Origin: Isurus oxyrinchus
Taxonomy: Eukaryota
Direction of reading: 5' to 3'
NCBI GenBank assembly: GCA_026770705.1
Contig: JANJGN010000021.1
Location: 98,518,001 to 98,582,000 of the forward strand
DNA: 64,000 nucleotides
Part shown: positions 5,282 to 61,689 of the stretch, in pieces
Layout: each line of letters starts with the position of its first letter
Numbering within the stretch: position 1 is the stretch's first letter
Made by a program: the position numbers and the translations under genes
The notes under the pieces: model-generated
What the model saw: the letters and a program-made list of their open reading frames with translations, nothing else
Told to the model about the DNA's origin: nothing
Database searches by the model: none

Positions 5282-5808
5282 TCACACTACTAAATGGCGC
5301 AACTTAAGAGGCTTGGCATTTTTATCAATATCAGTCAGAGCAAAATATGGAAAGAGTTTCTCAGTGAATGTGTCAGTGTAAGTGAAGAGATGAGACATGT
5401 CATCAGCATTGTAAAATGACAACTGTCCTCCCTCGTGGTCCAGGTAAACTCCGATGGTGCTGGGTTTCACACTCAATTTAAAAATCTCATCAGTCTCATA
5501 ATTATCTCCATTTGTCAACGACAGAGTCCAATATCCATTTTCAGGGAGAGGATTGATTTCCCCCTTTCGATTGGCTGACTCAGTGGCCACACCAATAAGC
5601 CAGTTAGGGATGTCCCCTACTTCCACCTCCCAGTAGTGTTTCCCTAATGTGAATCCCTCTGATCCCAGGACACAGGGAAACTCATCGAATCTCTCTAAAT
5701 TATTAAAAAGTGGTACTTCCATGTCACCGAGTTTCATGCTGGTTAGGTTGTCAGACAAGATAAGCTGAGGATGTGCTGTGTTTGGGTCGAGAATCAGTGG
5801 CACTGGAA
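5282..5808 (-). CDS. TRIM gene 1 exon 6 (PRY-SPRY/B30.2)
   Basis: LDPNTAHPQLILS, ERFD..PCVLGSEGF..GKHYWEVEV, IGVYLD.EGGQLSFYN, FTEKLFPYF motifs; an alternative in-frame acceptor lies 6 nt inside. Confidence 0.95.
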
Positions 5809-8800
5809 CTTGGAAGAAATAAAAATAACAAAGTTAAACGTGACACACTAACAAATACAAACAATGGTTACTCATTTTTAGTTACATGTAGATAATTCTC
5901 ATTTAATAGAAAATATGTATTTCCCATTATAAATGAATATTTCTATAATTTACATTCCTTGTGGAAATTAACTTGGGTTTAAAATGGGCATTATTGGATC
6001 TGTTATAGGCCCCCAACCAACTTCAATAGGACAGAGTATTGAACTCCATGTATAGCAGGTGGCTGATGCCCTAAGGCCTGTTTCATGTCCCTGCTTGAGA
6101 CAGGCTTTTGAAATTAAGAGAACAAATTCCTATTTCTTTACTTTGCACTGAATTTACAATGATGCGGAAAATCACTTTCTACAACCTACTACATGTGCAA
6201 AGTTTGAGCTCCTGAAGATAAAGAATATTGGGGATTGTGACATTTAGAATTTTGAACACCCTATGGTGGAGGTTTGTCCAGATTGTGGTGCTAGGTGAGC
6301 GATAATCCATGGACCAACTGTGATACACCTGGCCCAATATTCAATTCCATTCAAATTAATGCAGTTAGTATCTGAGCAATGTACTCACAGACACGGTAAG
6401 TAGCAAGTTCTTTCCTCCTAATTCAAACATATCACAGCCATTTTACATTAGGTTAAGCCGGTGCCATTTGGTAAATAGTAGGTCATGTCTCACCAGGAGA
6501 GATGATCTCCTTCATTTCTTTCCATATTGCATACAGTAAAGGTCCTCTGAACTCGCCCAGTGTCAGGACATTGAATCCCACCGTATCTTCATCATGTTCT
6601 TCAGATCCACTTCCACTTCCTTCATTTCCGCTTTCTTCACTTTCATCATCATCATTTTCACTATCATCTTCATCATCAGCATCATCTTCATCATCAGCAT
6701 CATCTTCATCATCATCTTCATCATCAGCATCATCTTCATCACTTCCCTCCTCTCCTTCATTCCCAAGGCATCTGAATTGGGTTGACAAATTGATTTAACT
6801 TCTGAAAATAATGTCATATCTTCAATATGTATAAAATTATGGGTCTAAATCATACACACCTTTCTGGCAATCTTTTCATTTCCTGTATACAAAAAATAAA
6901 TAAAATGTGAATTATATTGTTTTAGTATATGAAACAACTTCTACTTCACAATCACTGGGTAAGAAATTGTGATAAGGTCTACTGTGAAATCTGAATAAAT
7001 GGTTCTGGCAATCTGAAACTAGACATCTTGGTAGCAATAAAGCATACTGGACAATCACCCAGGTACCAGTTCCTTTGCATATAAATATTTATCTGTAATA
7101 TATTTATTTATGAACCGTCCAGAGAGAGCCAACACCGATTTGTAATGGTTAAGTGACATGTAGCTTACCTAACAGAATTTTAATAGGAAGTTACTGACAT
7201 GCGAGGTGAGGAGTGACTGTAGGCGCTATTTACATGGATTCCCTGAAGGCATTCAATAAAGTTCCACACAAGAGACTATTAGAAAATATGTAAGTGCATG
7301 AATCTGGAAGAACCTATTGAGATAGACAGGGAATTTGATTAGTGACTAGGAGACAGAGAGTCAGGATAATGTGTCTATATTTAAATTGTCAAGGTGTGAC
7401 TATTGTTTTTTTCTCCATGGGTCTGAACTTTTTAATCACATTTCTCATTGACATAGATGAAGGAATGAAGAGCATATATTCAAGCTTGCTGACAGCACTA
7501 AATTATGTGGCTCTGGAAGCAGTATGGCTGGGAGCAGGAAATTGCATTGGGACATTGATAGATTAAGTAAGTCGACTAAACTGTGATAGATGGAGCTCAA
7601 CGTGAGGAAATATGAGATCATCCACTTTACACCCGAGAAAGATAAATACAAATATTTTGAAAATAGTGAGAAGTTAGGAACCAGATGACTAGAAAGATTT
7701 ATGGAACTATGTACAGAACTCACATAAAAGTTAGCAGAGAGGTAGAAAACAATTTAAAAGACTAATGAAATGTTGGCCTTTATCTCCAAGGGGCTTCAAT
7801 ACAAAGGAAATTATGTTACACTTATATAAAGCTTTGGTTAGATCCCATTTACAGAATTAAGTTCAGTTATGGGCAAAGCATCTCAGGACAGATATTTTTT
7901 TTTTGGAGCAGGTGCAGCACACATTCTCCAGGATGATACTGGAGCTAAATGGGCAAATGATGAGGACTTAATCATGGTGTTCAATATGAGTACATGATTT
8001 GAAAGGGTAGATAGCTCAGAGCAAGGAGACATAAACATAACATTGATATTGACAGATTTCTGTTAGGCAAGGATGTTAAGGGACAAGCAGCCAAAGTGCA
8101 TGAATGGAGTTAAGTTGCAGATCAGCCCTGATCTAATTGAAGAGGCTCTCAGGGATGAATGGTCCACCCTGGTTCCTGTGTTCCTATTTGTAATCTCACA
8201 TCTGCACTCATTTCCTGCATACCACATTTTACTTTCTACTGTCGTGTTTTGGCACATTTCTATGTCACTTTTCTATTACAAATTCCTACATCCATATTTA
8301 TAGGGGAATTCTCCCCCATGTAAATGAGTCACAATGTGATTCCACCCTCCTTCCAGCGATGGCACTGCAGCACCTACATTTGTAACATCCAGTATCTCAG
8401 CCTGTACAGTGGAGAAATTCCTAGCCTCTGAAACATTCACTTTGTCTCAAATTGGTCTAATTGGTGTGGTTTAGTTATAAAGAATATTATTAACTATTGA
8501 TAATGCATCACCTTAAAATAGGATTGAATTACACCTGGAGGTCTTATGGCGCAGTGGGTAGTGTCCCTGCCTCTAAACCAGAAGCTCAGGGTTTGAGTCT
8601 CACTCCAGGACTTGATGGTCAAGGAAGGTGTGTTTATAACATCACAAACCAGGCTGAGTGTCAACCTGTATGTCTTTCCAACATGTGCCAATGGCAGGCG
8701 GCAAGAGTGGGAGAGATTACTGGTCAGCGATGTGATGGAAGGAATATTGTGCGTCTACCATCCAGACTACAAAAAGTGTATGCTGCTGCAGCAACCTGGA

Positions 8801-11800
8801 CTTCCTGAGTGAACTGTAATACCACCAAAGCATGGGCCAGTGTCTATTGCACTGTAACCCTGCTGCACCAGAAATCCATATTGCTAGGTTGGTTTTGACA
8901 GTTTCTCTGGAGAAACTGCAGATTTCAGTTTGTTTTTCACCTAGTCCACAGCAATTCATGGCCATGATAATTTTAATAACTAGGCCTCATTACATCAGCA
9001 GTCCATTGCCCAACTAAAAGCAGTTGCTGGCATCTGGGAAATTAGCTGCCCTTGACCACATGTTGGCACTTGGGCATTTGTCAGGTGGTGTTTGGAGGCT
9101 TGTGGTCAGGGATGGAGGCATCTGGAATAACGGGGCCTAAGTTTCCCTTGTGAGGCTAAAGCAGAGCACTTCTGAAATTTACTTCACCTTTAGCAATCCA
9201 ACACCTTCACCTAGTGGGAAATCAGCAGCAATGTTGCTGCTCTTGGGGGCATTTCTAATGGGGCTGATTATATCATTGGATGCCTATTAACAGAGGGGAA
9301 ATAAGATCCCACTGGCTTTGGGAAAACAGCCTGCCAACTGTCCAGGGGCATCTGTTAAAATAGAAAATGACCAAATCTTGGTGGCTTTCCAGCAAATGAG
9401 CAACCCAGGACATTTTAATTGCCTACCCGCAAACTTCTGCTGAATAGATATGGTTAAAATTTCTCCTCCTTAGATTTCTCCCAATATTTTGAACTATATT
9501 TTGATTACACATGCTCCCATCTTCCTATCCAAAAAGCCCAGTTTCAGCTTCCAATCTCTATATATTTGTTTTCTCTTCAATAAACTTGAATGTTTCTATA
9601 AATCTCAAGTGCACTTAACATTTACTGATCACATCCAGATCTGGTCAGCCTCTCTATTTAGTCGAGACTCTTGAGAGGGTTTCTGGATGTAGGATTCCCC
9701 AACTGTCTTCACAATGATGTTTGAACACACTGTTTCCTCACTTATTTACCAACATCCTCCTTAAATAGTCTGTTACCAATTATCATGAACATTATGAATT
9801 ATCAAGAACCTTAAAATGTTTAACCTGGATTAAGAAACTGGAATGTCTCAATTACTAAATTCTCAATGTGAAACTATCATGCAATTACTTCTTTGTGTTG
9901 AGGCAAACAAACTGACCTAAAGTAACAGCGAAGGCGTGTAAACTGTCTGTAAATTGGAGTGGCCAGAATATATCAGGGTTTTTAATCCTGATCACTATCA
10001 TTAACTGAAGGTATGGACAATTGCCATTTCACTGCAGCCCAGAAATATACTGGAGCTCATACAGACTCAAGCATGAAGATCTGCTGACCTTTGGCATTCA
10101 TGTAAATGTACCCAGTATCAATACTTAGCAAAATGTGATTCAGTTGGCTGTGATAGATACTCACTTCCACACTGTCTGCAGATTTGCATTATAGTCATGC
10201 GAAAACATGGCCACTTTAAAAAAACAGAAGCACTTGTCCCTTAACATTATCACCTAATCCCACTGATCATTTAAGTTGTCTACAAGAGCAGATGTGGTTA
10301 CCTTGAGAAAAATGATGTTGTCTTGCTGGTCAATGACAGCTTGAAGGTTAGATATATCCTCTTCAAGGGGCTTTAATTCTTCATCAATCACTGCTAAGTT
10401 TATCTTCATTAATTGAAAATCTTCCTCTCGGTGCATCGTGAGTTCTTCAATTAAGCAAGTTTCTTTGTCTTGAAGATATTGGTGAATTTTGGCAAATTGT
10501 TTGGAGATGTGTTGCTCCAGGGTTCCTGTGAGTTCCTAAGTTGGTGAGAGATAACATAAGAAATGGGTTGTATAACAGTCACACAGTATTGGGTGGTAGT
10601 GCTAAACTGGTGGCATTGCATTGGCCACCTGTTGATATTAAGTTCTGTTGAAGACTGGAAATGGAGATAGAGTGTAACAGTCAACAATACGATACTGCCA
10701 ATTCAGCATTATAGCCCAAGAGAGATTTTGACACAGCAATATCTAAAAGTTAGACTAATTGGACTTACATCCAGTTCTGAAATCTTCTCCTCCTGCTGAT
10801 GTTTTAATTCACTTTTGCATTTCTTTCTGTCCTCCAAAGAATCTAAGGAGGATTTCAGCTGGACCTGACAATGAAAACAGATCATTCAAAACTCATCCTT
10901 TTTCTAATTTGTTTCTTTGTTGTTTTTAAATAGGTGGAACTTAGAATGGGGGCAATGCATTAACTTAGCTTCAATCTCAAATATCAGAGGCACAAAGTGT
11001 CACTACCAAGTGATGATGTTAACTAGGAAACTGGCTAATATAAATATACTTTCCCAGCCAGAATGGAGATAAAAGAAAGGCTTGATTTTAAGCAGTGCTT
11101 TACCTAACCACACAGCATTCAGAGAACTTTACAGCCAAAGAAGTACATATGAGATTTAGTCACTGTTGTAATATAGTAAATGCAGCAGCCAACTGCCAAA
11201 CAGGCTGACCAACAGTTGGCGAAAAAAAATTGAGCAACACTTTGACACGGGAGATTGTATGACTAGGGCGGAGGTGGTGGTAGGTGCTGCTCAGCTTGTG
11301 AGATTTGGGTTGGTAGTGGGGTATGTTTGTGGACCTGTAAGAATGTGAGGTGGTGGGGGTGAGGGGGGGACGGGCTGGAGTGCTAGTGAACCTTCTAGCC
11401 ATGAGAAGGTTGCTGGCTAGCCCGATATGGCAGGCTGCCAGTGCGTACTGTACATGCCCTAAAAACCTTCAAAAATACAAGGCACACTATATGCCTGCAG
11501 CAAGCAACCCAAGATATGGGACAACTGCCTCAAAAAAGGGCAGTCCCATAAAATTCGGGATGGTTGGTCACCCTGCTTGCACACTCCAAACTTTCACAAG
11601 CAGCAATGTGATAATGACCAGATAACCTGTTCTTGTGATGCTGATTAAGGGATAAATGGTTAATGTCTTGTCAATTACATTATTAAGGTTAAGAGGAAAA
11701 GGTGATGAGTATTACGTGTCTTTGAGCACATATAAATAGCGGGCAGCTGGGACACTGGGTGGGAGGCAAGCTGTGAGACTGAACAAGTCAATAAACTCTC

Positions 11801-14800
11801 TCAATGAAGGAAACTCTGTGTCTTTGTTTCAGCTTCAACAACTGGCTTGGATCCTGTTAACAGCAATGTTGGTTGTGATCCCAGGGATAACTCCTCAGCT
11901 TTTCATCATGACAGTGTAATGGGTTCCTTTACATCCACTTGGGAGAGCAGATGGGGCCTTGGTTTGACATTTCATCTGAAAGACTGAGAAATATTCCCTC
12001 AGTAGTGCACTGGATGTCAGCCTTTACTTGTCTTTTTAAGTTCTGGAGTGGGTATCGGACCCACAACCTTATAATTCAGAAGCTCTCAATCGAACCACAA
12101 ATTGAATAATTTTCCCCACCAATCGCAACAGGACAACAATCATGACTGGAGCCATGCTGTTAGTGACTGAGATTGATGTGCACATAATATGTATTTATGT
12201 AACCATCTACTCATAAAATGTTGCTCGAGAACTCTGCTTTTATTCCATTTAGTTCATAAATTGTTCTATAAATACTCTTTTTGGATACTGTAGAGTGTTT
12301 GCCTTTATATAGTATATTCAACTACAGTATAAACAGATCTTGTTTACTGAGTAAATAGGCCTTGTTTCCTCATAGTCTTACTTGTAACTCTTTCGAGTGC
12401 AAACCCATTTCCATCTGTTTCAGATGAAGTTACATTGTTTCATAGTTTGCCATTGTGAGATTTGAACTCTTGAGGTTACAAACCCAGTACCATAACCATT
12501 TGGCTATTTAGGACGGTGGAAAGCAAAGCATGGGGCTGAAAGAATGTTGCTAAACTGGAAATGGCAGATGGTGTTCTGAAGAAATTCGTGTTGCTGAAGG
12601 CACCAAATTATACAAGAATTCCCAAAGGTCGTGGGTAGGCCATCAGGAAAGGCAAAAGGTGTCAGATGCAATTAAAGGAACAAAATCCAACATAGTACAA
12701 GCTCCACCTATTTGTTGGAAACTGACATGCGCTAAAGTGGAGCATAGGAGAAGAATGCTGTGTGGTCTAGAGGTTATTAAAGCAACAGTGCTTATAGATT
12801 GAAGGGTAAAACAACATCTTTGGTTTTGTGTTGATAGATGTAAAGTACAAAACAATTAGGCAACATTGAACTTCAGCTGCAATTTCTGTATTTTGTACCA
12901 GATTAAGGACCCAATTACAGGAAGAACATTAATTCATAATTCATTGGCAAAGGGGCAATGTTGCATATATGAGGAGGTTAACAGGGATGAAGCATTACAG
13001 GTGTGAATGGAAACTCAAGAGTTTTGGGCAATTTTCACAGCAGCTTCAACGGAACACATACATAGCTCTTCAACATTCCAAAAGGTTACGGTGGTAAACT
13101 AATACAATTGCCTCCACTGCTAGTCCAGACAGTGAAAAGATGATGGAACTGGAAGATAATCTCATAAACTGAGCTTGAAAATGCTTTGCTCCGAGTGTTG
13201 TCTGAATGTTTTAAACCAATTAAACTGGGTTTAAAACAGTTTGTAGATGTACACCCGACATGCGTGCCACAGAACCCCAGACCAGCAGTTGGTGATTTTT
13301 CATCAATTGATTTGAAATGATAAAGGTATCAAAAACCACTCAGATATTCAGACACTTACGAATAAAATAATATGTCAAGTTGGACAAACACCGAGTACTT
13401 CTCACATGTAGCACCATTGAATAATACAGCACAGGAGGAAGCCATTCAGTCCACATTGCCAACGCCAGTTCTTTAAAAGAGCTATTCAATTAATCCCATC
13501 TCCCAACACATTCTTCGTACTCCTGCAAATTTTCTTCCTTCCCTTTATTTATCCACTTCTCTTTTGAATGCTACAGTTAAACATTCTTCCACTGGCCTGC
13601 CAGTCAGTGCATTCCAGATCACAACAACTCTGTGCAAAAAAAAAATCTCATCTCTCCTCTGGTTCATTTGCCAATTGTCTGATAACTGGAAAGGATTTAC
13701 ATTTTAAAGTATGGGTTACAATATCACGTCAGTGAATTTAAGTAGGGCAAGGGCATTACTAGGAAGTTAAGAGACCACATATATGGAACCTTATGGAAAA
13801 TTTGTATGTTGCCAAAATAGTGCTAGAACAACCATTTTGATGTCTCAATGTATAAATCATACACTGCCATTAATGTTTCTGGGTCATGGTATAACTCTTG
13901 ATATGAAGTGAGCTTGGCTGGGGCACAATCAGTCCAGGCAGCAATGGAAGGATGCCAAGAATAACATATTGGAGTAAAGGATTCCAAAGTCCACACTAGT
14001 CAAACATCAGCTGAACTTTAGGACAGGATTCTTATACAATATTCCTCAATCTAATGAGGGTCATTGAAAGAATACATTATCCCTGAATAAAAACTTCTGA
14101 AGTATGACAGCACATTGGTAACTCAATCTTAACAGACTAACCCCATACAGGAGGTTGTGCAATCAAAGCAGTAAAGACAGGGGTTAGGCAAAAGTCTTTA
14201 AACAGGGGGTTGTTTGACTTAAAGAGTGGTTAAGGTAGGCCCTGTTGCAGATTCAATTGAAAGAGGAAATGCACTGTGCTGCTAATTGCATAAGATGAGG
14301 CAATGGGAGTCATCTTGTTCAGTCTGGATAGCCAGTGTAGAAACTCTAGCCAAATGGGCTCCTGCCCTGCTGCAAGATGCTTTGTTTGGGGTACAAGGAG
14401 CCATGCAAAGTCCAAACCAGTAGTTTTAACCTGAATAAAGCAATGTAGGTATTGATAGGGTTTCCTAACATATATGCTCCAGTAAACAATTTATTTGAGT
14501 TAATAGTTTTCTTCTTCTATGTTACAAAGATTCATAAATGTATCCCTTCTAGATTTTCCCTATTTTATTTTACTCACTGAACAGTATTTATATCAGTCCT
14601 GTAATTATCCATGTTACATATTTCTGCTTCTTGGCAAAGATTTGGCATTATACTATGACTTTATCTGTCATATCATACACTTTATTCAATATCTTTATAA
14701 ATTCAGTTTCACTCATTTTATTTTTGTATCAAAGCACTTTGAGGTACTAAGTATAAAAATATACTTATAGATATCCTTATGGTGAATCTAAAATTTAAAA

Positions 14801-17800
14801 TACTGAACAAAGATCCTGAAACTGGATCTGTCTGTAACTCCACAGTAAAAGAAACTACATTGCATTTTTGGAAATCTCACACCCGATTATCTCTGAGGAG
14901 CTACCAATGATCATCTGGTGACTGCACATCACAACTTCAAGTGGTTACACATCATTTGTCAAAGGTAGTGGAGAGATGGGAATCATGTGACATGGGCCTA
15001 CAGCTTGTGGTGTTTAACATCTGACTAGCAGGCAACATCAAAACAGCTCTGGCCCAGGTTGGACACCTGGCCCCATCTACACTGCCTCTGCTGGAAGTTC
15101 TGTGCTATTACCTATAAGATAGGTACGCAGAGCTGAATCAATCTCATCATGTGAAATTAATGCTACTGGAAAAATGAATTCTAAACCATCGGTTTTCAAC
15201 CTGCCAACCTCTGTGAAGGAATAGCTCATTGGACTTTGATTCTGGACTCTGGAACCCACGTGAAGCAATATTTCTTTTCTCTGTGGTCTATATACTGTAA
15301 ATCTTTCATTTCTTTACCCCTCTCTTTACCATCTGAAGGCGAGGGGGGCATTGCAAACCCAATTTTCACATTGAGTTTGTGCAAATAAACTAATCTATTG
15401 AGTTCATCCTATCTCAAGTTTGACGTGGGGTTATTGATAGAAAATTGGATTGCACCAAAACTAGGTGTTGGGAAATATGCCACCACTTATAAAAGGGGAA
15501 ACAAATCAAAACAGCTTTCTGTTTATGGATGGGTGGTGAGAGGAGAAATTAGCGCTGTTTAAATTAACTCCCCTCCTGTTTGTAACAGCAGCTCATGTAA
15601 AATTATGCACTTGTGACATTATGCCACATTCATAAATAAAAATGAATTTCTTCTGTGATATTGTTCACCACTCTTGTTCATGATGCACTCAGCTTATTCC
15701 ACAGTAATCAGACTGTTTTTCTGTTTATTAATTTCTTAACGGTCTTCACCACTGTTCAAAGTACAAACATACGAGCATATGAATTAGGAGCAGCGGTAGG
15801 CCATTTGGACCCTTGAGCCTGCTCTGCCATTCAATAAGGTCATGGCAGATCTGATTGTGGCCTCAACTCTGCTTTCCTGCCTATCCTCTATACTCTTTGA
15901 CTCCCTTGTCAATCAAGAACCTATCTACCTGTGCCTTAAAAATATTCAGTGTCCCCACCTCCACTGCTTTCTGGGGAAAAGGGTTCCACAGACAAAATGT
16001 GGCAAGCTGTTCAACTGCTCAATCGCTTCAGTGGGACTGGGAGATCTTGTCGCCTGGAGGAGCCATACAATTCTGCCAATGAAGAGGATTTTAGTACACT
16101 CTTGTTACCCTTCCCCTGTAGTCAAATGTTTTCTCTTTGGATAATTATCCATTTCCCATTTGAAAGCCACAACTGAACCAGCCTCCACCACACTCTTAGG
16201 CAGCGAATTCCAGATCCTAACTACTCACTGCATCAAACAGTTTTCCTCATGTCACCTTTTGTTCTTTGCCTTGCACCTTAAATCATGTCATCTGTTCTCA
16301 GCCCTTCTGTCAATGCCAGCAGTTTCCCATTTTCTACTTTGTCTAGACTCCTGAGATTTTCAAAACCTCTATTGAATCTTCAGTCAACCTTTGCTTCTCT
16401 AAGGAGAACAACCTCAATTTCCCCAATTTATCTAAATAACTGAAGCTCCTCATCCCTGGAACTATTCTTGTAAGTCACTGCTGCACCTTCTCTAACACTT
16501 TAATATCCTTCCTAAAATGCGGAGCCCAGAATTAGAAACAATATTCTAGTTAAGGCTGAACCAGTGTTTTATAAAGGTTCATTATATCCTTTGTTTCTGT
16601 GCATTATGTCTCTATTTATGAAGCCTAGGATTCAGAATGCCTTCTCAGCAACTCCCTCAATCTGCCCTGCCACCTTCAGTGATATGTGCATATATAAGCC
16701 AGGTCCCTTTGCTCCTGGTAGAATTATGTCCTTTATTTTACATTGCCTCTCCTCCATCTGCCTCTCCTCGTTCTTCCTACACCTCTCTGTATCAAGTTTC
16801 ATCAGCCAGGCATCCGTACATTCCACCAGGTATCTAGGTTCTCTTGAAGTCTACCTCCGTCCTTCTCACAGTTCACAATACTAGCAAGTTTTGTGGCATG
16901 TACATGTTTTTTTGAAATTGTGCCCTGTGCACGCAAGCCTAGGTAATTAATATAAAGCAAGAAAGGAATTGGTTCAAACATGGACCCTGGGCATCCACCA
17001 CCCCCAGCCCCAATGGTTCAGCACCAACTGCACTCCCCTTTTCCAGGGCCCAGCCTGGGGGACCCCACTACATACCTGACTCCAGTACGAAATTTCCTGT
17101 CACTCAACCAATTTCCTATCCATGCTGCCGCTGCCCCTTTTATTCCATTCAATAAATACAGGTTGCTGCTTTCCTTAATATGAAGTACGGGTGAAACAGG
17201 GCACACAGAGTACATGGGGATAACACAAACAGGTGGATACATAGAAGGGGGCAACAAAAATCTAGAGGTCTACATGCGGATACAGACAAGATAGCATTTA
17301 AAAAGGCCCAAAATATAGGGACAGTCAGATTATTAAGTGTCAGTCCAGCCCGACGTTCGTGACAATCCAACCTGACAGTCCTTAGTGTTCGCTTGCACTT
17401 TGTACAGTCTCTGTAATCATCTGCAGCGATCTTCAAAGTACAATTGCAGCAACATCCTGTACCATAAACTCAGGCCCATTTGAAAATCTTATTGCTACTG
17501 GAAAGACAGTCTTCCCAGTAAACATGATTAGTTCAACTGCCTCACTTCTAAAGAACCAGAACATCATAACCTCTACCCGCGGTCCCCAAAACACGCCTTG
17601 TGTCCCTTACCTTGTACTTTTTCACCGCATCCCCAACAGGCAGGAAGCTGTGCTCCGAATGTGCGGGTGAATCTCTACAAATGACACAGATCAGGGACAG
17701 ATCGTCCTCACAGAAGAGCTTCAGCTTCTCGTCGTGTTCCTCACAGTGAGACCCCACCGCCTCTCCGTCAGGCTGAGGGTCCGGCTTCAGGTCTAGCAGC

Positions 17801-18036
17801 CGGGCTTTCTCACAGAGATTGGCCAACACCCTGGCATTTTTATAGCACTTCTGGGAGAAAACAGCGCGGCATTCCGGGCAGGACACGACCTCACTCTGGT
17901 TTTCCCAACACTTCTGGATACAGGATTTACAGAAGTTGTGATCACAGTCCAGCCGCACCGGCTCCACAAACAGAGACAGGCAGATGGAGCAGGTTAAATC
18001 CTCGGCCAATGTTAACACCTGCTTGACGGTAGCCAT
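5282..18036 (-). CDS. TRIM E3 ligase (RING, B-box2, coiled coil, PRY-SPRY/B30.2; TRIM39/TRIM69/XNF7-like architecture), 6 exons, 527 aa, intact
   Basis: Exons 18036-17611 (426), 10864-10769 (96), 10535-10302 (234), 6882-6860 (23), 6771-6494 (278), 5808-5282 (527) total 1584 nt. All junctions GT/AG, phases 0,0,0,2,1, no internal stop. The 96/~231-234/23-nt exon series is typical of class IV TRIM genes. Confidence 0.92.
6494..6771 (-). CDS. TRIM gene 1 exon 5 (linker with D/E-rich expansion)
   Basis: CAG|A-CLGNEGEEGSDEDDADDEDD...LGEFRGPLLYAIWKEMKEIISP-G|GTGAG; the end matches the usual pre-PRY motif (F.GPL.Y..WKEM). Confidence 0.88.
6655..6741 (-). repeat. Coding (GAT/GAA/GCT)n repeat with 18-nt units GATGATGCTGATGATGAA encoding DDADDE
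   Basis: Plus strand reads (tcatcttcatcatcagca)n. Confidence 0.9.
6860..6882 (-). CDS. TRIM gene 1 exon 4 (23-nt microexon)
   Basis: CAG|GAAATGAAAAGATTGCCAGAAAG|GTGTGT = EMKRLPE(R); restores frame into exon 5. Confidence 0.85.
7180..8190 (+). mobile_element. Old degraded CR1 LINE in TRIM1 intron 3
   Basis: Residual YMD..KAFNKVPHKRLL, SSLLT (SKFAD-like) and LYKALVRSHL motifs. Confidence 0.7.
8540..8810 (+). mobile_element. tRNA-derived SINE
   Basis: Pol III A box TGGCGCAGTGG (8547-8557) and B-box-like GGTTTGAGTCT (~8590-8600); no complete cloverleaf. Confidence 0.6.
10302..10535 (-). CDS. TRIM gene 1 exon 3 (coiled coil, 234 nt)
   Basis: TAG|ELTGTLEQHISKQFAKIHQYLQDKETCLIEEL...QQDNIIFLK|GTAAC; open frame. 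Confidence 0.9.
10769..10864 (-). CDS. TRIM gene 1 exon 2 (coiled coil, 96 nt)
   Basis: CAG|VQLKSSLDSLEDRKKCKSELKHQQEEKISELD|GTAAG; about 82% nucleotide identity to paralog exon 61074-61169. Confidence 0.9.
11590..12090 (-). mobile_element. Deu-domain-type SINE interrupted by a ~200-bp LTR-like insert (~11658-11861)
   Basis: Contains gggagagcagatggggccttggtttgacatttcatctgaaaga and ccctcagtagtgcactgg, recalled as typical of shark Deu-SINEs; the insert has TATAAATA, AATAAA and an ..AACA end. Confidence 0.5.
15770..17150 (-). mobile_element. Degraded CR1 LINE fragments in TRIM1 intron 1
   Basis: ORF fragments HISLKVAGQIEGVAEKAF and GIKGAAAAWIGNWLSDRK; CR1-type 3' end near 15770-15850. Confidence 0.7.
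17611..18036 (-). CDS. TRIM gene 1 exon 1: C3HC4 RING + B-box2
   Basis: [31 protein letters not shown]...CPECR; CEEHDEKLKLFCEDDLSLICVICRDSPAHSEH; donor AAG|GTAAG at 17611/17610. Confidence 0.95.
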
Positions 18037-18056
18037 GTCATTGTCCTGGAGTCCAC

Positions 18057-18073
18057 GTTTTCACTTTCATTTC
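18057..18073 (-). promoter_or_regulatory. ISRE/IRF-binding element of TRIM gene 1
   Basis: GAAATGAAAGTGAAAAC on the minus strand, 20 nt before the ATG; an equivalent motif sits at the same place in the paralog; palindromic ATTGGCCAAT at 18099-18108. Confidence 0.7.
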
Positions 18074-18111
18074 TTCATCGATTGCTGATCAAAGAACAAT
18101 TGGCCAATAGA

Positions 18112-22692: not shown

Positions 22693-22698
22693 TTTATT
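22693..22698 (-). terminator. Candidate polyadenylation signal of the MHC class I gene
   Basis: AATAAA on the minus strand about 160 nt after the stop at 22858. Confidence 0.5.
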
Positions 22699-22758: not shown

Positions 22759-23048
22759 ATCTCTGCTGATCGCTGCTAGTCTCTGCCATTCTCTGATGGT
22801 TTCCGCCAGTCTCTCTGATCTCTGCCATTCTCAACTGTCTCGGACAGTTGCTGCTGGTCATTGCTGCTCTCTGCCACTATCTGCTGGACTCTGCCAGTGC
22901 TTGCTCGTCTCCCACCAGTCTCTGCATATCCTCCGCCAGTTGCACCAGTTTCTAATGGTCTCTGTCAACCTCTGCTGGCCTCCGTCAGTCTCTGTTAGTG
23001 CCTGTTGGTCTCTGCAAGTGTCTGCCAGTCTCTGCTGGTTGCTGCCTG
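22759..23048 (-). repeat. Degenerate 10-nt minisatellite (consensus YRGCAGAGAC), about 28 units, spanning the MHC tail and 3' UTR
   Basis: CAGCAGAGAC TGGCAGACAC TTGCAGAGAC CAACAGGCAC TAACAGAGAC ... TGGCAGAGAC TAGCAGCGAT CAGCAGAGAT. Confidence 0.8.
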
Positions 23049-23171
23049 TCACATCACTTGGCCTCTGCCTCCAGAAACCAAAGCCAATGATGATGCCAAG
23101 AAGAGTGAGTGAGAGGGCTGCTGCTCCAATCACAATTCTGACCTTCATGCCTCCTTGTGTCACTCTCTCTG
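22858..23171 (-). CDS. MHC class I connecting peptide, TM and cytoplasmic tail exon
   Basis: NAGNAG acceptor (TCAG|CAG|) in phase 1; hydrophobic IVIGAAALSLTLLGIIIGFGFW followed by basic RQR and a 70-aa tail. Confidence 0.75.
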
Positions 23172-47100: not shown

Positions 47101-47182
47101 TGACTTCAGAGGAGTGAAATATGACTACATTTAAATATGACAAAAAGAGTACTTCTCTAACTAGCTGTTTGGGTATTGCTTG

Positions 47183-51014: not shown

Positions 51015-51289
51015 ATAGAAAATTTATGCTACAGGAGGAGCTGTGACTGCTTTTTCACCAATATAGTTCCTTTTTCAAAACCCCATTCTCTATCCTGTCT
51101 GAATACTCTGTAACCAGCAATGCAGTGCTGCCATTCTTGCCTTTAAGCTACATTTCAGTAATAGCTATGATATCATTCTTCCAAGCGTCTATCTGACCCT
51201 TGGTTAGCTTTATCAACTACACTCCTTGCATTGAACTACATACTACTAATCACTGAATACCTCTTGTTGTCTGCTTTCGGGCCTTTGTT

Positions 51290-51620
51290 TCCTCGGCCTC
51301 CCATACATGCTTACCAATTTCCTGCCCTCTATTTCCAGCTTTGCTTATCTCCCTGCTGAACCTATGCTCAGTCTTCCATCCCCCTGTCAAATCTGTTTTA
51401 AAGCCTCCCCAACTGCCCTAACAAATCTGCCGGCCAATATGTTGCTCCAGCCCTGTCAGGTTGCAACCCGTCTGGCTTGCACAGGTTCCAACTCACCCAG
51501 ATCTGGTTCCAATGCCCCAGAAATCTAAAGCCTTCACTCCTGCACCAGTTGTCCAGCCATACATTCATCTGCGTTATCCTCCCATTTCTATCTTCACTAT
51601 CACATGCCACCGGGAATACA
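51290..51620 (-). mobile_element. CR1 ORF1 (SGNH esterase-like) remnant
   Basis: RITQMNVWLDNWCRSEGFRFLGHW..KPDGLQP in ORF 51398-51709. Confidence 0.7.
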
Positions 51621-54019: not shown

Positions 54020-54428
54020 TTGGAACTCGATATCAGAGAGACAGTGGGACAATGGGATTAGTTTGGGATCGATACACAGCTACAGGGAGACAGTGGGGCA
54101 GTGGGGTTGGTTTGGGATTGATACAGATTTACAGTGTGGGGGAGTGGGATTACTTTGGGATTGATACAGGGCTATGGGGAGAAAGCGCAGCAATGGGATT
54201 AGTTTGGAATTGATACTGAGTTATGGAGTGTGTGGGGGAGTGGGGTTAGTTTGGGATTGATACCAAGTTATGGAAAGCCTGTGGGGGAGTGGGGTTAGTT
54301 TGGGATTGATACAGGGCTATGCAGGGGAAAGCGAGGCAGTGGGATTAGTTTGGAATTAATACTGAGTTATGGAGTGTGCGTGGGGGAGTGGGGTTAGTTT
54401 GGGATTGATACAGGGCTATGGGGAGAAA
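54020..54428 (+). repeat. G-rich ~48-bp tandem repeat, about 9 units, just upstream of the TRIM pseudogene
   Basis: GGGGAGTGGGGTTAGTTTGGGATTGATACAGGGCTATG repeated. Confidence 0.9.
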
Positions 54429-54554
54429 CCTCAGTGCCATTGTATTTTACATGAATTGGTACTCAGGGAAATAGAGATTTGCCAGACACTTTTGTCTGAT
54501 GACAATGTTCCTTTAAGAGGATGGATTTGGAAGTGAGTTTCACAATAAACTGGA

Positions 54555-54571
54555 GAAATGAAACTGAAACT
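54555..54571 (+). promoter_or_regulatory. ISRE of TRIM paralog 2
   Basis: GAAATGAAACTGAAACT (consensus GAAANNGAAACT), 34 nt before the ATG at 54606; GGAAGTGAGTTTCAC lies just upstream. Confidence 0.72.
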
Positions 54572-55253
54572 CAGGTGAGTGACAGAATAAGGAGCAGCAA
54601 CTGAGATGGCTGTCAGTAAATCAATTTTATCCCTGACTGAGGATTTAACCTGCTCCATCTGCCTGTCTCTGTTTGTGGAGCCTGTGCGGCTGGACTGTGA
54701 ACACAACTTCTGTAAATCCTGTATCCAGAAGTGTTGGGAAAACCAATGGTTTGCTGTGTCTTGCCCAGAAAGTCGAGTGGTTCTCCCCCGGGGATGTTTC
54801 ACCAGTAACAGGGTGTTGGCCAATCTCTGAGAAAGCTCGACAAATGGAACTGAATCTAAAGCTGGAGGATTGTCTGCCTCACTGTGAGGAACACGGGGAG
54901 AAGCTGGTGCTGTTCTGCGAAGAGGATGAGATTCTGATCTGTGCCGGTTGTGTAGGTTCTCCCCCACATTCAGCCCACAGGTTCCTCCCTCTACAAACAG
55001 CACTTCAAAAGTACAAGGTATGGGGACACAGGGAGTTACTCGTCTCCATTGCTCATTGTGTTATTAGGGCTGTTTCGAGTTAGTGGACAAAATTTCATCG
55101 CATGACCTTGTTTGTAAACATCCCACCAGCAGGCTACCCCCTTTGGTTGCCCAACCTGTCCATCCTCACGAGTACAGACTTCCCAACCAATTGGAAAATA
55201 AACACTCATTATCTGATTGGACGACTATTGCCTCTCAGTCAAACAGTATCCTT

Positions 55254-57582
55254 TGCTGTTGTTGTCTGGCGCACTGACCTCTACCTCGCAGAGGCTGAGC
55301 GCCAACTCGCAGACACTTCCTCCTACCTCTCCCTGGACCATGACCCCACCACTGAACATCAAGCCATTGTTTCCAGGACTGTCACTGACCTCATCTCCTC
55401 TGGGGATCTCCCTCCCACAGCTTCCAACCTGATAGTCGCCCAACCTCGGACGGCCCGCTTCTATCTCCTACCCAAAATCCACAAACAGAACTGCCCCGGT
55501 AGACCGATCGTCTCAGCTTGCTCCTGCCCCACAGAACTCATTTCTCGTTATCTTGACTCCCTTCTCTCTCCCCTTGTCCAGTCCCTTCCCACCTACATCC
55601 GTGATTCCTCTGACACCTTACGTCACATCAACAATTTCCAGTTCCCTGGCCCCAACCGCTTCCTCTTCACCATGGACGTCCAAGCCCTCTACACCTCCAT
55701 CTCCCACCAGGATGGTCTGAGGGCCCTTAGCTTCTTCCTCGAACAGAGGCCCGAACAATCCCCATCCACCACTACTCTCCTCCGTCTGGCTGAACTTGTT
55801 CTCACGTTGAACAATTTCTCCTTCAACTCCTCTCACTTCCTCCAAATAAAAGGTGTGGCTATGGGTACCCGCATGGGCTCCAGCTATGCCTGTCTCTTTA
55901 TGGGGTATGTGGAACATTCCTTGTTGCAGCCCTACTCCAGCCCCCTTCCACAACTTTTTCTCCGGTACATCGATGATTACTTCGGTGCCGCTTCATGCTC
56001 TCGTCGGGACTTGGAAAAATTTATTAATTTTGCTTCCAATCTCCACCCCTCCATCATTTTCACGTGGTCCATCTCTGACACTTCCCTTCCCTTCCTTGAC
56101 CTCTCTGTCTCAATCTCTGGTGATAGACTGTCCACCAATATCCATTACAAACCCACCGACTCCCACAGCTACCTCGACTACAGCTCCTCACACCCCGCTT
56201 CCTGTAAGGACTCCATCCCATTCTCCCAGTTCCTTCGCCTTCGTCGCATCTGTTCCGATGATGCTACCTTCAAAAACGGTTCCTCTGACATGACCTCCTT
56301 CTTCCTTAACCGAGGTTTTCCACCCACGGTCGTTGACAGGGCCCTCAACCGTGTCCAGCCCATCTCCCGCGCATCCGCCCTCACGCCTTCTCCTCCCTCC
56401 CAGAAACATGATAGGGTCCCCCTTGTCCTCACTTATCACCCCACCAGCCTCCACATTCAAAGGATCATCCTCCGCCATTTCCGCCAACTCCAGCATGATG
56501 CCACCACCAAACACATCTTCCCTTCACCCCCCTTATCGGCATTCCGTAGGGATCGTTCCCTCCGGGACACCCTGGTCCACTCCTCCATCACCCCCTACTC
56601 CTCAACCCCCTCCTATGGCACCACCCCATGCCCACACAAAAGATGTAACACCTGCCCCTTCACTTACTCTCTCCTCACCGTCCAAGGGCCCAAACACTCC
56701 TTTCAAGTGAAGCAGCATTTCGCTTGCATTTCCCCCAACTTAGTCTACTGCATTCGTTGCTCCCAATGTGGTCTCCTCTACATTGGAGAGACCAAACGTA
56801 AACTGGGCGACCGCTTTGCAGAACACCTGCGGTCTGTCCGCAAGAATGACCCAAACCTCCCTGTCGCTTGCCATTTTAACACTCCACCCTGCTCTCTTGC
56901 CCACATGTCTGTCCTTGGCTTGCTGCATTGTTCCAGTGAAGCCCAACGCAAACTGGAGGAACAACACCTCATCTTCCGACTAGGCACCTTACAGCCTTCT
57001 GTACTGAATATTGAATTCAACAACTTTAGATCGTGAGCTCCCTCCCCCATCCCCACCCCCTTTCTGTTTCCCCCTTTTTTTTTCTTCCCCAATAAATTAT
57101 AGAAATTTTTCTTTTCCCACCTATTTCCATTATTTTTAAATATTTTAAAATCTTTTATGCTCCCCCCACCCCCACTAGAGCTGTACCTTGAGTGCCCTAC
57201 CATCCATTCATAATTAGCACATTCGTTTAGATAATATCACCAACTTTAACTTTAACACCTATGTGTTCTATTGTACCATTGTCGCTGACATCTTTTGATG
57301 ATCTGCTTCTATCACTGCTTGTTTGTCCACACAACCACACACCCCGCCCCCCCCCCCCCACCTCTCTCTCTCTCTATTTCTCCGCCCCCCACACACACAC
57401 CTTAAACCAGCTTATATTTCAACTCTTTCTTGGACTCGAAATCAAGTTCTGTTGAAGGGTCATGAGGACTCGAAACGTCAACTCTTTTCTTCTCCGCCGA
57501 TGCTGCCAGACCTGCTGAGTTTTTCCAGGTAATTCTGTTTTTTTTTTGGATTTCCAGCATTCGCAGTTTTTTTTTGTTTTTA
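55254..57582 (+). mobile_element. Young Penelope-like element, 5'-truncated, uninterrupted ~590-codon RT + GIY-YIG ORF, in TRIM2 intron 1
   Basis: YLLPKIHK, GRPIVS, GVAMG, YIDD, LVYCIRC..YIGET..RFAEH; perfect 15-bp TSD TCAAACAGTATCCTT at 55239-55253 and 57583-57597; hammerhead-like motif at 57445-57483. Confidence 0.97.
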
Positions 57583-58388
57583 TCAAACAGTATCCTTCCC
57601 CATTGACAATATATTGATAACCAGAAAAACAAATATGTGTTCAAAGAAAATAAAAGAAAAACCCATTTTTTAAAATTATGTTTTCTCAGGTTGCTCTCAG
57701 CAGAGTCCTGCAGATTAATCTTCAATTCCTGGAGACTCCAGGACATAATGGGGGAGTTGGTAACTCTAGCTGTTGCATAATGTAGCTTGAAGAAATTTTC
57801 CTTCATCACACACTTTGGGCAGAATTTAATGCCTTCTCCTGGGGCAGGGGGTGGACAGGAGGGGACCCGGCCACCTTGCCCTGATTAAGCACGTTACGGG
57901 AAGGCCGCCTCGCCGCCAACTGAGGCTCTAAAGTGGGCAATTAATGCGGAGCACGACAAGCAAACTCGTGCGGGTTATCTGCAAGCTCCTGGGTGCCGGG
58001 AGAGCAGCCGGTCGGGGCCGGGAGAGCAGCGAGTGGGAGCTGGGGAGGGGAAATGCGATTGTATTTCCACAGACTTTAATGGAGGCAGTAATCGGGCCTC
58101 GGAGCACATTTCCGCCACCGAACCACAGCAGAAAAAAAAATAATCGTTCTCAGACCTGTTGTCTGGCCTCTGATCTGATCGCAAGGCTGTCCTGCCCGAC
58201 ACTCCCCTTTGCTGCCTCGGAGCTTGCGACGCGATCGGGCGACCCATGGTTTGGGAATCCCCGCTGCAGTGTCATGGAGCTTTTAATAAGTTTCTTTAAT
58301 TACACACCATGGTAATAATATTACTGTGGTGTAATGTAGCTGTCAATCAGTTTCTTCCATTACATATTGGTCCTACTATTACTGTGGT

Positions 58389-58950
58389 CTTCTTATCGTG
58401 TCCACGGACAGTCTAGAGTCGGCCCAGCCAGAACTGGACACATTTTTGCTCCTTGTTGAATTCGGCAAGATCTGCAACAGTGCAGAGTACCTCTAACGAT
58501 AGGCATTGCAGGAGATGTTGCATAGTCTGTGGCTCAGTTCCACATTCACAAGTTGTCGGGCTGGTTGTATATCCCCATTTGCTTAGTGACACCTTTGGAT
58601 GACCTACACCAGTCCTAAGACTGTTAAGGCACTTCCATGTTGCCCAGTTGCAATTAGCTCCTGGGGGAAGGCTTTCATCTGGTAAAATTTTCATCACTGG
58701 GGGTTGTTGGAGACTGGTGAGCCAGTCTTTCCACAAGGTGATGTGGGCTTCAGATGGGGTTGATTGTAATGGAACAACACTGTTCATGAAGCTCTTCCTT
58801 GACTTTAGACGGCTGGGTGTAGGTGTATGACCATGTAGAGGGTGTCTCTCATCTGATGTTTGACGGAGTCGCTCTTTCTTGCTGGCTACTGTTCTTCTTA
58901 TATCAGGGGGAGTGATACCTGCCAGGATATATAGGCTGTTGGTGTTTGTA
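58389..58950 (-). mobile_element. Vingi/Ingi-like LINE 3' fragment
   Basis: WKCLNSLRTGVG..KWGY..CECG..QTMQHLLQC zinc-knuckle C-terminus; 12-bp TSD TATTACTGTGGT at 58377-58388 and 58957-58968. Clade assignment is from motif recall. Confidence 0.7.
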
Positions 58951-59179
58951 TTACTGTATTACTGTGGTGCAATGTAGCTTTAATTCAGGCATCCATTTTC
59001 AGTGAGGTACAGGCTACAACTCCACAATAACAAGAAGCTAGGAGATGCTCAGTTCATTCGCCATATTGACAGATTCAGCAACACTGTGCATTTAATATTC
59101 TTATCCATATGTTCAAAGCCTTCATACACTCACCCCTCCCATATATCAGCCATTTTCCCTGGCCCCACAACAATCAAAA

Positions 59180-59760
59180 ACAACAGCAGCAATAACTTGT
59201 ATTTACAGAGCACTTTTATTGCCCTAAAATGTCCAAAGACATTTCACAGGGGCATTATAAAACAAAATGTGACACTGAGCCACATAAAGGAGTCTAGGGC
59301 AGATGACCAAAAGCTTCGCCAAAGAGAGAAGTTTTAAGGAGGGTCCGACTGGAGAATTTCAGAGTTTAGGGCTGAGGCAACTGAAATCATGGCTACAGTA
59401 TGAAAGCATAGAGCAGCTGAAATCAGGGATGCTCAAAAGACTACAATTAGAGGAGCGCAGATATCTCTTGAGGGTTGTAGAGCTGGTGGTGGAGGAGTTT
59501 AGAGATAGGCTGGGGCAAGGTCATGGAGGAATTTAAAAACAAGGATGAGAATTTTAAACAACAAGGAACCAATGTAGGACAGTGAGCACAGAGGTGACAG
59601 GTGAACAGGACTTTGTGAGAGTGAAAAAGGCAGCAGAGTTTTGGATGACCTCCAGTTTACAGGGGGTAGAATGTGAGAGACCAACCAGGAGCATGTCAGA
59701 ATAGGTGAGCGTAACGGTAACAAAAGGGATGAATGGGGGCTTCAGATGGGTTGAGTAGGA
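59180..59760 (-). mobile_element. L2-like LINE 3' fragment
   Basis: KLEVIQNSAA..SPVTSVLTVLHW and FKILILVFKFLHDLAPAYL. Confidence 0.75.
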
Positions 59761-59889
59761 AAAAAAAAAGTAAAACTTGGAAATAACTGGCCAAACTGGT
59801 CCTGTATAACTGACCATGGGACTTCAGTAGACTTACTGGTGCTAACACTATTGGTTTTTGACAATTTCAAACTGTTTTTTTCCTTCTGG

Positions 59890-60280
59890 AGTCTGAGTAA
59901 ATTGGGCCTATACTGTCTGGAATTTAGAGGAATGAGAGGTGATCTCACTGAAACATACAAGATTCTGAAGGGCAGTGACAGAATAGACACAGGTTATTTC
60001 ATCTGGATGGGGCACAGTGTCAGGATAAGGGAGCAATCATTTAGGACTGAGATGAGAAATTTCTTCACTCAAAGGCTTGTGAATCTTTGGAATTCTCTAT
60101 CCAGAGGGTTGTGGATTCCCCATCGTTGAGTATATTCAAGACTGAGATCGATAAATTCTCGATTTCTCAGAGAATTAAGGGAAATGGAGAGCAGGCAGGA
60201 AACTGGAAATCACATTGAATGGCGGAGCAGGCTTGAGGGGTTCAACAGACTGCCCCTGCCCCTATTTCTTATGTTCTTAG
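59890..60280 (+). mobile_element. CR1 3' fragment
   Basis: LGLYCLEFRGMRGDLTETYKILKG..RNFFTQRLVNLWNSL. Confidence 0.85.
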
Positions 60281-61689
60281 GCTCTTAACTACCCTTAACG
60301 TAGCAAAGTCCACATTTTACTCACGGAGTAAAGAGGTTCATCTTGAATGCGCTATTGGTTGTATCAGTGACTATCTTAATCTGGTGTCACTTTTGTTATA
60401 GTGGCCTCCCAAGTTGAAACATCTTCCCTCAACATTTACCTTATCAAACCCATTCATATTTTTTATATACCAGAAACCTCTTGTAGGTTTCAAGCTATGC
60501 TTGGTTTAATTCAATACTTTTCACTCTGCCTTTTATAAAAGTACGCTCCTTTGCAGCCCGCTTGATTGGCACCCCATCCATTCCCTCCATCATCGATACA
60601 CAGTGGCGGCAGTGTGTACCATCTACTAGTTGCACTGCAGAAACTCCACAATGGCTCCTTCAAAACCTTCTAAACCCAAACTGCTACCATCTAGAAGGAC
60701 AAGGGCAGCAGACACATGGCAACACCACCACCTGGAAGATCCCCTCCAAGCCACTCATTGTCCTGACTTGGAAATAAATTGTTGTTCCTTCACTGTCACT
60801 GGGTCAAAATCCTAAACCTCCCTAACAGCACTGTGGCTGTACCTACACTGCATGGACTGCTGTGGTTCAAGAAGACAGCTCACCACTGCCTTCTCAATGG
60901 CAATTAGTGATGAGCAATAAATGCTGGCCCAGCCAGCGAAGCCCACATCCTATGAAAGAATTAAACAAAAACACTAGTGCCACATAGAACATTCCCTGAA
61001 CACCAGTCCCCACAGTGTGTGATATAACAGCAAACATTACAATGATCATGGTGAGGTCTGATTCCATTTTTAGGACCAGCTGAAATTATCCTTGGATTCC
61101 ATGGAGAATCAAAAGAAAAATAAAAGTGAATTAAAACAGCAGCAGGAGAGGAAGATTTCCGAACTGGATGTGAGTATTACTTCAGTTCCCTTTAAACACT
61201 GCGATCCTTTAACAATCCACTGTTTAAATGATCTCTCCCAACTTTAGGAACTCATTGGATCCCTGGAGCAAAACATCTCCACACAATTTGCTAAAATCCA
61301 TCAATAACTTGAAGACAAAGAAAAACATTTAATCGAAGAGCTGAGGAGACAAAAGGAGGAAGATCTGAGACTAATGGAGGAGAACTTGAAAAGAATTGAA
61401 GAGGAACTGACGTCACTTGAGGAGAAGACATTGAGTCTTTGTGTAGACATCGAGCAGCAGGACAGTAGCTCCTTTCTCAAGGTGACCCTTTATAACCTAA
61501 TGCCCAAGCTGTTGATCTAAGTGTAAACAAAATTTTATTATAGGGCTTAAATCCCATCACAACAATGCCCAATGCGCAGTATGACTGAGGACAAACAGGT
61601 ATCAATCATGATTGAGCTCGAAGTGTCAGGGATATAGTCCCACATGGTCAGCGCTTCACACCGGCTGCAGTATAACTGGAACCAAAGTG

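Follow-up and report, generated by a model that had tools for sequence, protein, structure and literature searches.

The proposal that class IV TRIM genes belonged to the ancestral MHC was made more than a decade ago (Boudinot et al. 2011, PMC3137616). A 64-kb stretch of the genome of the shark Isurus oxyrinchus, referred to herein as the window, carries an MHC class I gene between two TRIM genes. The question is whether such an arrangement is an ancient antiviral module, a unit that duplicates as a whole, or simply the order in which the genes were inherited. The evidence points quite strongly to the last: the window is part of the shark MHC class Ib cluster, where a small array of TRIM genes lies among class Ib genes, and its order is most likely inherited, being neither functional nor co-duplicating as a unit.

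An intact and a disrupted TRIM gene

Exon mapping gave three genes, TRIM1, the class I gene and TRIM2, in the orientation first described. The stop codon of the class I gene lies 4,822 bp from the ATG of TRIM1 on the same strand, and the ATG of TRIM2 (54606) lies 15.9 kb from that of the class I gene (38701) in the divergent direction. Order, orientation and spacing (about 4.8 and 16 kb) are as stated in an initial annotation of this DNA, which did not notice that TRIM2 is broken.

TRIM1 (5282..18036, minus strand; 527 aa) is intact, with an open frame from the ATG at 18036 to the stop at 5282 and GT/AG sites at its introns. Its six coding exons (18036-17611, 10864-10769, 10535-10302, 6882-6860, 6771-6494 and 5808-5282) encode a RING, a B-box, a coiled coil, an acidic linker and a B30.2 domain. 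RING, B-box, PRY and SPRY are matched in Pfam, so that the RING, B-box, coiled coil and PRY-SPRY of a class IV TRIM are all present in a single spliced frame. The linker, encoded by exon 5 (6494..6771, minus strand), is rich in Asp and Glu and made of a short tandem repeat. All five introns (5/5) are spliced out in RNA contigs X18/X20, which come from one sample, and the protein matches a basking shark "zinc-binding protein A33-like" at 94%.

The part of TRIM2 within the window (54606..61481, plus strand) consists of exon 1 (54606-55017), exon 2 (61074-61169) and exon 3 (61248-61481); later exons lie outside, among them the B30.2 exon about 6 kb past the window end (contig 98587888-98588420). 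In comparison with the intact basking shark ortholog P0083, four lesions are present in this assembly: a frameshift in exon 1 with a TGA near 54828, absence of the final RING Cys, a premature stop in exon 3 (61305-61307), and a frameshift in the B30.2 exon. The intact reading frame of a class IV TRIM is therefore missing from this copy, while being retained in P0083 and in the catshark orthologs P0132 and P0163.

Retroelements occupy some of the introns. Intron 4 of the class I gene contains a decayed element with a reverse transcriptase (24289..25909, plus strand) and a LINE-type element with endonuclease-like and reverse transcriptase frames (27670..30419, minus strand), both recognized by Pfam. 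Intron 1 of TRIM2 contains a putative Penelope-like element (55084..57033, plus strand), whose reverse transcriptase match and weak GIY-YIG match are both below the Pfam cut-off.

A class Ib gene related to UGA

The class I gene (22858..38701, minus strand) encodes 390 aa in an open frame from the ATG at 38701 to the stop at 22858. Its exons, for which covering contigs were found, are the leader (38701-38650), alpha1 (35165-34905), alpha2 (32360-32085), alpha3 (30872-30600), and the transmembrane (TM) segment with the cytoplasmic tail (23168-22858), and the protein matches MHC_I and C1-set in Pfam. It is a nonclassical class I gene, a paralog of the CD1-like class Ib gene UGA, and is conserved in sharks and rays. 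Classical class Ia molecules carry the peptide-end anchors Y7, Y59, R/Y84, T143, K146, W147, Y159 and Y171. Here the corresponding series reads F7, H59, Q84, A123, L143, R146, W147, L159 and Y171, so that with HLA-A2 as the reference row only W147 and Y171 are kept, F7 and R146 being conservative changes. Nor is the gene linked closely to the antigen-processing genes: proteasome and TAP-like exons lie at 65.5-70.5 Mb and a class Ia-like gene at 66.1 Mb, as against 98.55 Mb for the window gene. A classical identity was rejected on these two grounds. Class I domains, lost anchors and a position in the class Ib cluster together place the gene among the elasmobranch class Ib genes.

The best PDB match of the protein is 9CH4, nurse shark UGA (E 1.6e-71), with which it has helix motifs of alpha1 and alpha2 in common. 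The best stand-alone MR1 chain gave E 2.7e-49; the RefSeq name of the gene mirrors its best human match, and with UGA scoring far higher an MR1 ortholog was rejected. UDA, UEA, UFA and UBA were likewise rejected, with identities of 24-39% in alpha1 and 27-33% in alpha2 and each having its own gene nearby. UGA itself is also a different gene: a separate UGA-matching gene, at 98.45-98.47 Mb, is the adjacent class I locus at a distance of about 70 kb. The window gene and this UGA are 39% identical in alpha1, 42% in alpha2 and 48% in alpha3, and the N86 glycan site kept in UGA is lost in the window gene. In quick trees, for which SH-aLRT support alone was computed, the gene and its orthologs form a clade of their own across sharks and rays (support 99); neither the sequence search nor the tree yielded members from outside these two groups. 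The gene matches no lineage named in the papers covered, and literature searches yielded no named sister of UGA, although papers on UDA and UEA could give such a name.

Across 18 shark and ray sequences, 22/40 groove positions are invariant, and a hand count on the sequence gave 33/40 as hydrophobic. A structure prediction for the catshark ortholog from a 17-row alignment had a mean pLDDT of 36.7 and was rejected as unusable. The gene would represent a low-copy lineage evolving apart from the TRIM genes, with a conserved, mostly hydrophobic groove and most peptide-end anchors lost. The predicted role of its product is to display on the cell a ligand that is invariant and probably lipid-like, as its paralog UGA may do. 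Lipid binding by UFA and UGA was mentioned in a review as a personal communication (PMC12562908). Being conserved and UGA-like, the gene offers a clean case in which to study how the presentation of lipids or invariant ligands arose.

The TRIM array on the MHC chromosome

The window lies in the class Ib cluster already described for the shark MHC (UGA, UFA, UDA and UEA); classical class I is about 32 Mb away. MHC linkage, which the initial annotation proposed to check through flanking genes, was borne out, as the chromosome also carries class Ia, class II (exons identified through alpha3-like matches), a BET gene, and proteasome-beta and TAP-like exons. A Pfam MHC_II_beta search gave no match, a result that carries no weight as to class II. 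A map of 884 kb reads UGA, TRIM1, the window class I gene, TRIM2, six more TRIM heads with stray B30.2 exons, UFA, UDA and a UEA cluster. Several heads and stray exons of this array are broken, and no TRIM exon occurs among the UFA, UDA and UEA genes at 98.89-99.28 Mb, the 884-kb region having been examined in full. Elsewhere the TRIM counts are lower bounds, because the genome searches scored 150/324 and 150/285 candidates; even so, 144/150 scored B30.2 matches and 118/128 RING-B-box matches lie on the MHC chromosome within 82.9-118.2 Mb.

Within this TRIM-rich region, TRIM flanking of the class I gene is not above chance. Judged by scored matches, only 1 of the chromosome's 25 class I loci has a TRIM within 30 kb on both sides, and 9% of all positions in 82.8-118.3 Mb are flanked in the same manner. 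For classical class I, the nearest scored TRIM lies 16.8 Mb away.

The same map bears on the suggestion that TRIM and class I genes duplicate together, which is contradicted in this genome and which we regard as unlikely overall. A class I remnant, a partial duplicate at 98.81 Mb (leader 97% identical, TM exon 74%), does lie inside the TRIM array, but no TRIM1 head follows it, UEA and UBA expanded without TRIMs, TRIM arrays occur without intact class I genes, and repeated units with matching trees are lacking. A case for co-duplication comes from Heptranchias, in which 11 near-identical class I proteins have TRIMs numbered among them on two scaffolds: class I XP_067834402/403/405 with TRIM XP_067834406 on one, and class I 333/334/337 with TRIM 335 (XP_067834 series) on the other. 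However, these TRIMs are of the TRIM2-type clade rather than TRIM1, bear a low-quality (frameshifted) label and are outnumbered by the class I copies, and the unplaced scaffolds may be uncollapsed haplotypes.

The numbering in Heptranchias nevertheless hints at joint amplification, an observation that runs counter to a purely inherited order.

TRIM1 and TRIM2 each have an ISRE/IRF-type motif at the start, 32 bases upstream of the ATG in TRIM1 (18059..18068, minus strand) and 46 bases upstream in TRIM2 (54560..54569, plus strand), and these are the only two matches in the window. Such a motif lies within 100 bases of the ATG in 6/7 TRIMs tested, the expectation being 0.0009 per 100 bases. Judged by these motif matches, the TRIM promoters carry the putative response element of interferon-induced antiviral TRIMs, and the array is likely interferon-inducible. 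The class I gene has none in the 4 kb preceding its ATG, a distance counted from the ATG and not from the transcription start, and a distant shared enhancer is possible. A bidirectional ISRE shared by the class I gene and TRIM2 was rejected, the motif lying at the TRIM2 start, 15.9 kb from class I. The antiviral module of the initial annotation is weakened by the nonclassical nature of the class I gene and by the pseudogene on one flank.

Under the preferred reading of an inherited order, the TRIMs would expand and die through local tandem duplication, each with its own interferon-response motif. By analogy with their family, their expected role is that of cytosolic E3 ubiquitin ligases with B30.2 as the target-binding domain. 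The layout is then ordinary, and the new leads, a class Ib lineage and a TRIM expansion, are modest. A bolder version, which we offer tentatively, is that an unnamed nonclassical class I lineage, sister to UGA, predates the divergence of sharks and rays and uses a near-invariant hydrophobic groove to present a lipid-like ligand that is fixed; that the TRIM array in which it lies responds to interferon, on an MHC chromosome with well over 100 TRIM-B30.2 genes; and that it was co-amplified with TRIMs in hexanchiform sharks.

Age of the neighbourhood and comparison with known systems

Orthologs of TRIM1 and the class I gene carry consecutive accessions in 4 of the 7 species having both, which suggests that the two adjoin in galeomorph sharks. 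From this accession order we infer a neighbourhood that is old within sharks; the adjacency, whose absence in relatives was part of what would count against the initial annotation, appears to be present in them. Both trees follow the species groups; this agreement was to be checked, and it is found, yet any two single-copy neighbours would show it. In a ray, TRIMs lie on only one side of the class I gene.

Common regulation, or transcription that reads through from one gene to the other, might hold TRIM1 and the class I gene together, as they are on the same strand, 4.8 kb apart and apparently conserved in order in galeomorph sharks. This appears improbable, given that TRIM1 has its own ISRE-type motif and the class I start has none, that the gene 3' of the likely sawfish ortholog of class I is another class Ib gene, and that the 538 kb behind the likely white shark ortholog contain no gene in the table for that species.

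The apparent retention of the pair over several shark orders is also what selection on the pair could give.

Improbable, too, is a relic of an antiviral TRIM/class I module of the jawed-vertebrate ancestor, sharing its origin with the arrangements seen in mammals and chicken. TRIMs do occur on the MHC chromosome of sawfish (27 "A33-like" rows on chr34), as in I. oxyrinchus, and as single genes in the MHC of reedfish and lungfish, and for zebrafish an enrichment of class IV TRIMs in the vicinity of MHC paralogs has been published (PMC3137616). However, the sequence search retrieved TRIM1 orthologs from galeomorph sharks only and the class I lineage from elasmobranchs only, leaving the proposed age of the cassette unsupported. 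Among the bony vertebrates sampled, the closest relative is lungfish P0094, which lies on a record of 1.842 Gb, whereas MHC chromosome 9 of lungfish exceeds 1.973 Gb. In the white shark, about 10 Mb separate the class Ib cluster from the homologs of the framework genes of human class I (gnl1, ppp1r10, abcf1 and ppp1r11). The class I position in placentals is viewed as derived (PMC10751288), and MHC TRIMs are reported to have expanded independently in birds, reptiles and mammals (PMC10445537).

The elasmobranch class Ib cluster of UDA, UEA, UFA and UGA (Verissimo et al. 2023, PMC10751288) is on the same chromosome and is the same cluster, the window neighbours resembling, by eye, its UGA, UFA, UDA and UEA-type queries. 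The window gene is absent from the query lineages named there, and the tables tag its likely white shark and sawfish orthologs "MHC-Ib". The main text makes no mention of TRIM, tripartite or B30.2, and our literature searches found no shark TRIM-MHC cluster. The class IV TRIM-B30.2 genes of mammalian and bird MHCs (TRIM10/15/26/31/39/40; the chicken cluster) resemble the shark genes in RING-B-box-coiled coil-B30.2 architecture, MHC location and local expansion. The shark genes differ in their RefSeq names ("zinc-binding protein A33-like" and "nuclear factor 7-like"), in copy number (about 140 on the chromosome, a lower bound) and in having nonclassical class I neighbours; no TRIM10/15/26/31/39/40 name is among the best 60 PDB matches. 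One TRIM/class I adjacency is in itself no evidence of an ancient module. The proto-MHC hypothesis (PMC3137616) is a claim about a region, without a TRIM/class I cassette, and at that level the present locus provides what the 2011 proposal asked for, namely shark evidence for class IV TRIMs crowding the MHC chromosome.

Gene structures and the MHC neighborhood

TRIM1 (window 5282..18036, minus strand), an intact class IV TRIM gene, has a 527-aa open frame over six coding exons, and all five of its introns are joined out at GT/AG sites in RNA contigs from a single sample (runs X18 and X20). The nonclassical MHC class I gene (22858..38701, minus strand), a paralog of the shark UGA lineage, has a 390-aa open frame over five exons. 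Its alpha3 exon is matched exactly by contigs from two studies (X18 and X19), which end the exon match at the predicted donor 30600 and then carry 39 and 58 extra letters, a pattern that suggests splicing at this donor. The cytoplasmic tail (22858-23070) is long, with repeated Gln-Gln-Arg-type units whose number differs among species. TRIM2 (54606..61481, plus strand), which is divergent from the class I gene, is broken in this assembly relative to its intact basking shark ortholog (P0083): exon 1 and the B30.2 exon (~6 kb beyond the window end) are frameshifted, the last RING cysteine is lost, and exon 3 contains a stop. Two of these lesions, both short-repeat indels, may stem from assembly errors; substitutions account for the remaining two. 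The TRIM / class I / TRIM layout described in the initial annotation is real, and its distances (4,822 bp from the class I stop to the TRIM1 ATG and 15.9 kb from TRIM2 to the class I gene) are correct.

Contig C21 (118.3 Mb) of this 4.98-Gb genome, which contains the window (98518001-98582000), is the MHC chromosome: it carries a class Ia-like gene (66.1 Mb) and a BET domain (80.3 Mb), together with exons of proteasome-beta (65.5 and 70.2 Mb), TAP-family (69.6 and 70.5 Mb), and class II (79.6-80.9 Mb) genes. Throughout the 884 kb around the window, scanned completely, the gene order is UGA, TRIM1, the window class I gene, TRIM2, a TRIM array (six more TRIM heads and additional isolated B30.2 exons, of which several contain stops), UFA, UDA, and the UEA cluster; UBA-like genes come next, at 99.6-100.3 Mb. 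Lineage names were given by eye, comparing translations with the query files of PMC10751288, and the neighborhood corresponds to the class Ib cluster of that paper. Because the locus lies in the class Ib cluster of the MHC chromosome, it is not unlinked to the MHC, and the linkage proposed at the outset stands.

The class Ib cluster (98.4-100.3 Mb) is reversed, and ~18 Mb separates it from the BET gene and class II, while a white shark table places its start 1.4 Mb from BRD2 (PMC10751288); this points to either a large inversion or a difference in scaffolding. In the single UDA gene (L007, C21:98942580), the assembled reading frame shifts close to where alpha1 begins, which may reflect an assembly indel. 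Contig C16, which is not the MHC chromosome, carries a class Ib gene of UEA type (L109, 53768380-53775200); PMC10751288 reports no class Ib genes outside the MHC, and translocation or misassembly may explain this copy. Several divergent MHC-like C1-set exons lie on the unplaced contig C102 (240-301 kb; L110-L112), one of which resembles, by eye, the UHA alpha3 query.

A class I lineage of sharks and rays

A search with the alpha2 exon retrieved 13 proteins, 70-96% identical and mostly one per species, from 12 species of sharks and rays. The per-domain identity to the white shark ortholog is 99%, which identifies the animal as a lamniform shark. The window gene and 14 orthologs form one clade (support 99) that leaves out the UGA, UFA, UDA, UEA, UBA, and UAA genes of this genome. 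Because shark and ray orthologs share this clade without the named lineages, the lineage is older than the divergence of sharks and rays; the search recovered no member from chimaera or bony fish. In HLA-A2 numbering, W147 and Y171 are the only peptide-end anchors retained, and the N86 glycan site is missing. Hand counts place hydrophobic residues at 33 of 40 groove positions and invariant residues at 22 of 40 among 18 sequences, four of which are near-identical Heptranchias copies. Among solved structures the best match, 9CH4, has the sequence given for nurse shark UGA in the PMC10751288 supplement, and a review passage states, as a personal communication, that UFA and UGA bind lipid (PMC12562908). 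Judged from its sequence, the window gene product may likewise bind a lipid-like ligand. This UGA sister lineage, which has no name in the papers reached by the literature search, is modestly new.

Age of the adjacency and the TRIM expansion

Adjacency in other species was judged by RefSeq accession order, an indirect proxy, in the seven species with both class I and TRIM1 orthologs retrieved. The numbers are consecutive in four (two catsharks, the epaulette shark, and one bamboo shark, where they are GenBank locus tags on a single scaffold), at most three apart in one, and far apart in two, though the records are of equal length. For example, in Scyliorhinus torazame the TRIM2 ortholog is 293, the class I gene 294, and TRIM1 295-297. 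In a tree of top search matches, the TRIM1 ortholog clade comprises galeomorph sharks only. Tables of PMC10751288 show, in sawfish, three TRIM-named genes 86 kb 5' of the ortholog, whose assignment follows gene names and numbering, and a further class Ib gene as its 3' neighbor, and, in white shark, a divergent gene 17.7 kb upstream of the likely ortholog and 538 kb downstream without any gene, which is either counter to strict conservation or a gap. From accession order, the TRIM1 clade, and these two tables, the common ancestor of sharks and rays likely already had a TRIM array beside the class I gene, and the exact triad likely goes back to galeomorph sharks.

Of the 150 B30.2 matches scored among 324 candidates, 144 fall in the stretch of C21 at 82.9-118.2 Mb, as do 118 of the 128 RING-B-box matches obtained by scoring 150 of 285 candidates. 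Several tandem TRIM arrays in this stretch contain at least 144 B30.2 and at least 118 RING-B-box exons, with at least 48 B30.2 matches at 112-114 Mb and at least 18 at 86-88 Mb. The size of this expansion, which the main text of PMC10751288 does not mention, is modestly new. A TRIM fragment at C21:98866262-98872608 has a RING-B-box exon 82% identical to that of TRIM1 and upstream sequence of TRIM2-type appearance, a possible exon conversion.

The initial annotation also raised the possibility that TRIM and class I genes duplicate together as a unit. Among scored matches, a TRIM within 30 kb on both sides is found at 9% of positions in the TRIM-rich stretch and at only one of 25 C21 class I loci, the window gene itself; the nearest scored TRIM is 16.8 Mb from the class Ia gene, and the completely scanned UEA expansion contains no TRIM exon. 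At 98.81 Mb, within the TRIM array, a class I remnant (C21:98807521-98813660, L046-L047) shares flanking tandem repeats with the window gene and retains a leader (97% identity) and a TM exon (74%); neither alpha domains nor a TRIM1 head behind it was found. The sole contrary hint comes from Heptranchias, where 11 class I proteins of this lineage (P0006, P0144-P0153; 98-100% identical) occupy several scaffolds, on two of which TRIM2-type genes fall within the class I numbering. Trees of TRIM1 and of class I each track shark orders, as would those of any two single-copy neighbors. A co-duplicating cassette is therefore unsupported in this genome.

Regulation and comparison with bony vertebrates

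An ISRE-type 10-mer occurs twice in the whole window, each time just before a TRIM ATG (TRIM1 and TRIM2), a count unremarkable in itself (13 of 100 shuffles). The motif lies within 100 bases of six of seven tested TRIM starts, which are paralogs and hence not independent, with 0.0009 expected per 100 bases; this supports a putative interferon-linked role for the TRIMs. Its presence at TRIM starts and absence within 4 kb of the class I ATG argue against TRIM/class I co-regulation through this motif.

The layout, real and old among sharks, is best explained as gene order inherited in a part of the MHC that is rich in TRIM genes. In reedfish and lungfish, the MHC contains single A33/NF7-like genes, the reedfish one not adjoining class I genes among the rows examined (PMC10751288). 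The nearest bony-vertebrate relative of the local TRIMs among the sequences in the tree is a lungfish protein (P0094), whose record size is inconsistent with lungfish chromosome 9. According to the tables of PMC10751288, the white shark class Ib cluster is separated by ~10 Mb from homologs of the framework genes of the human class I region.
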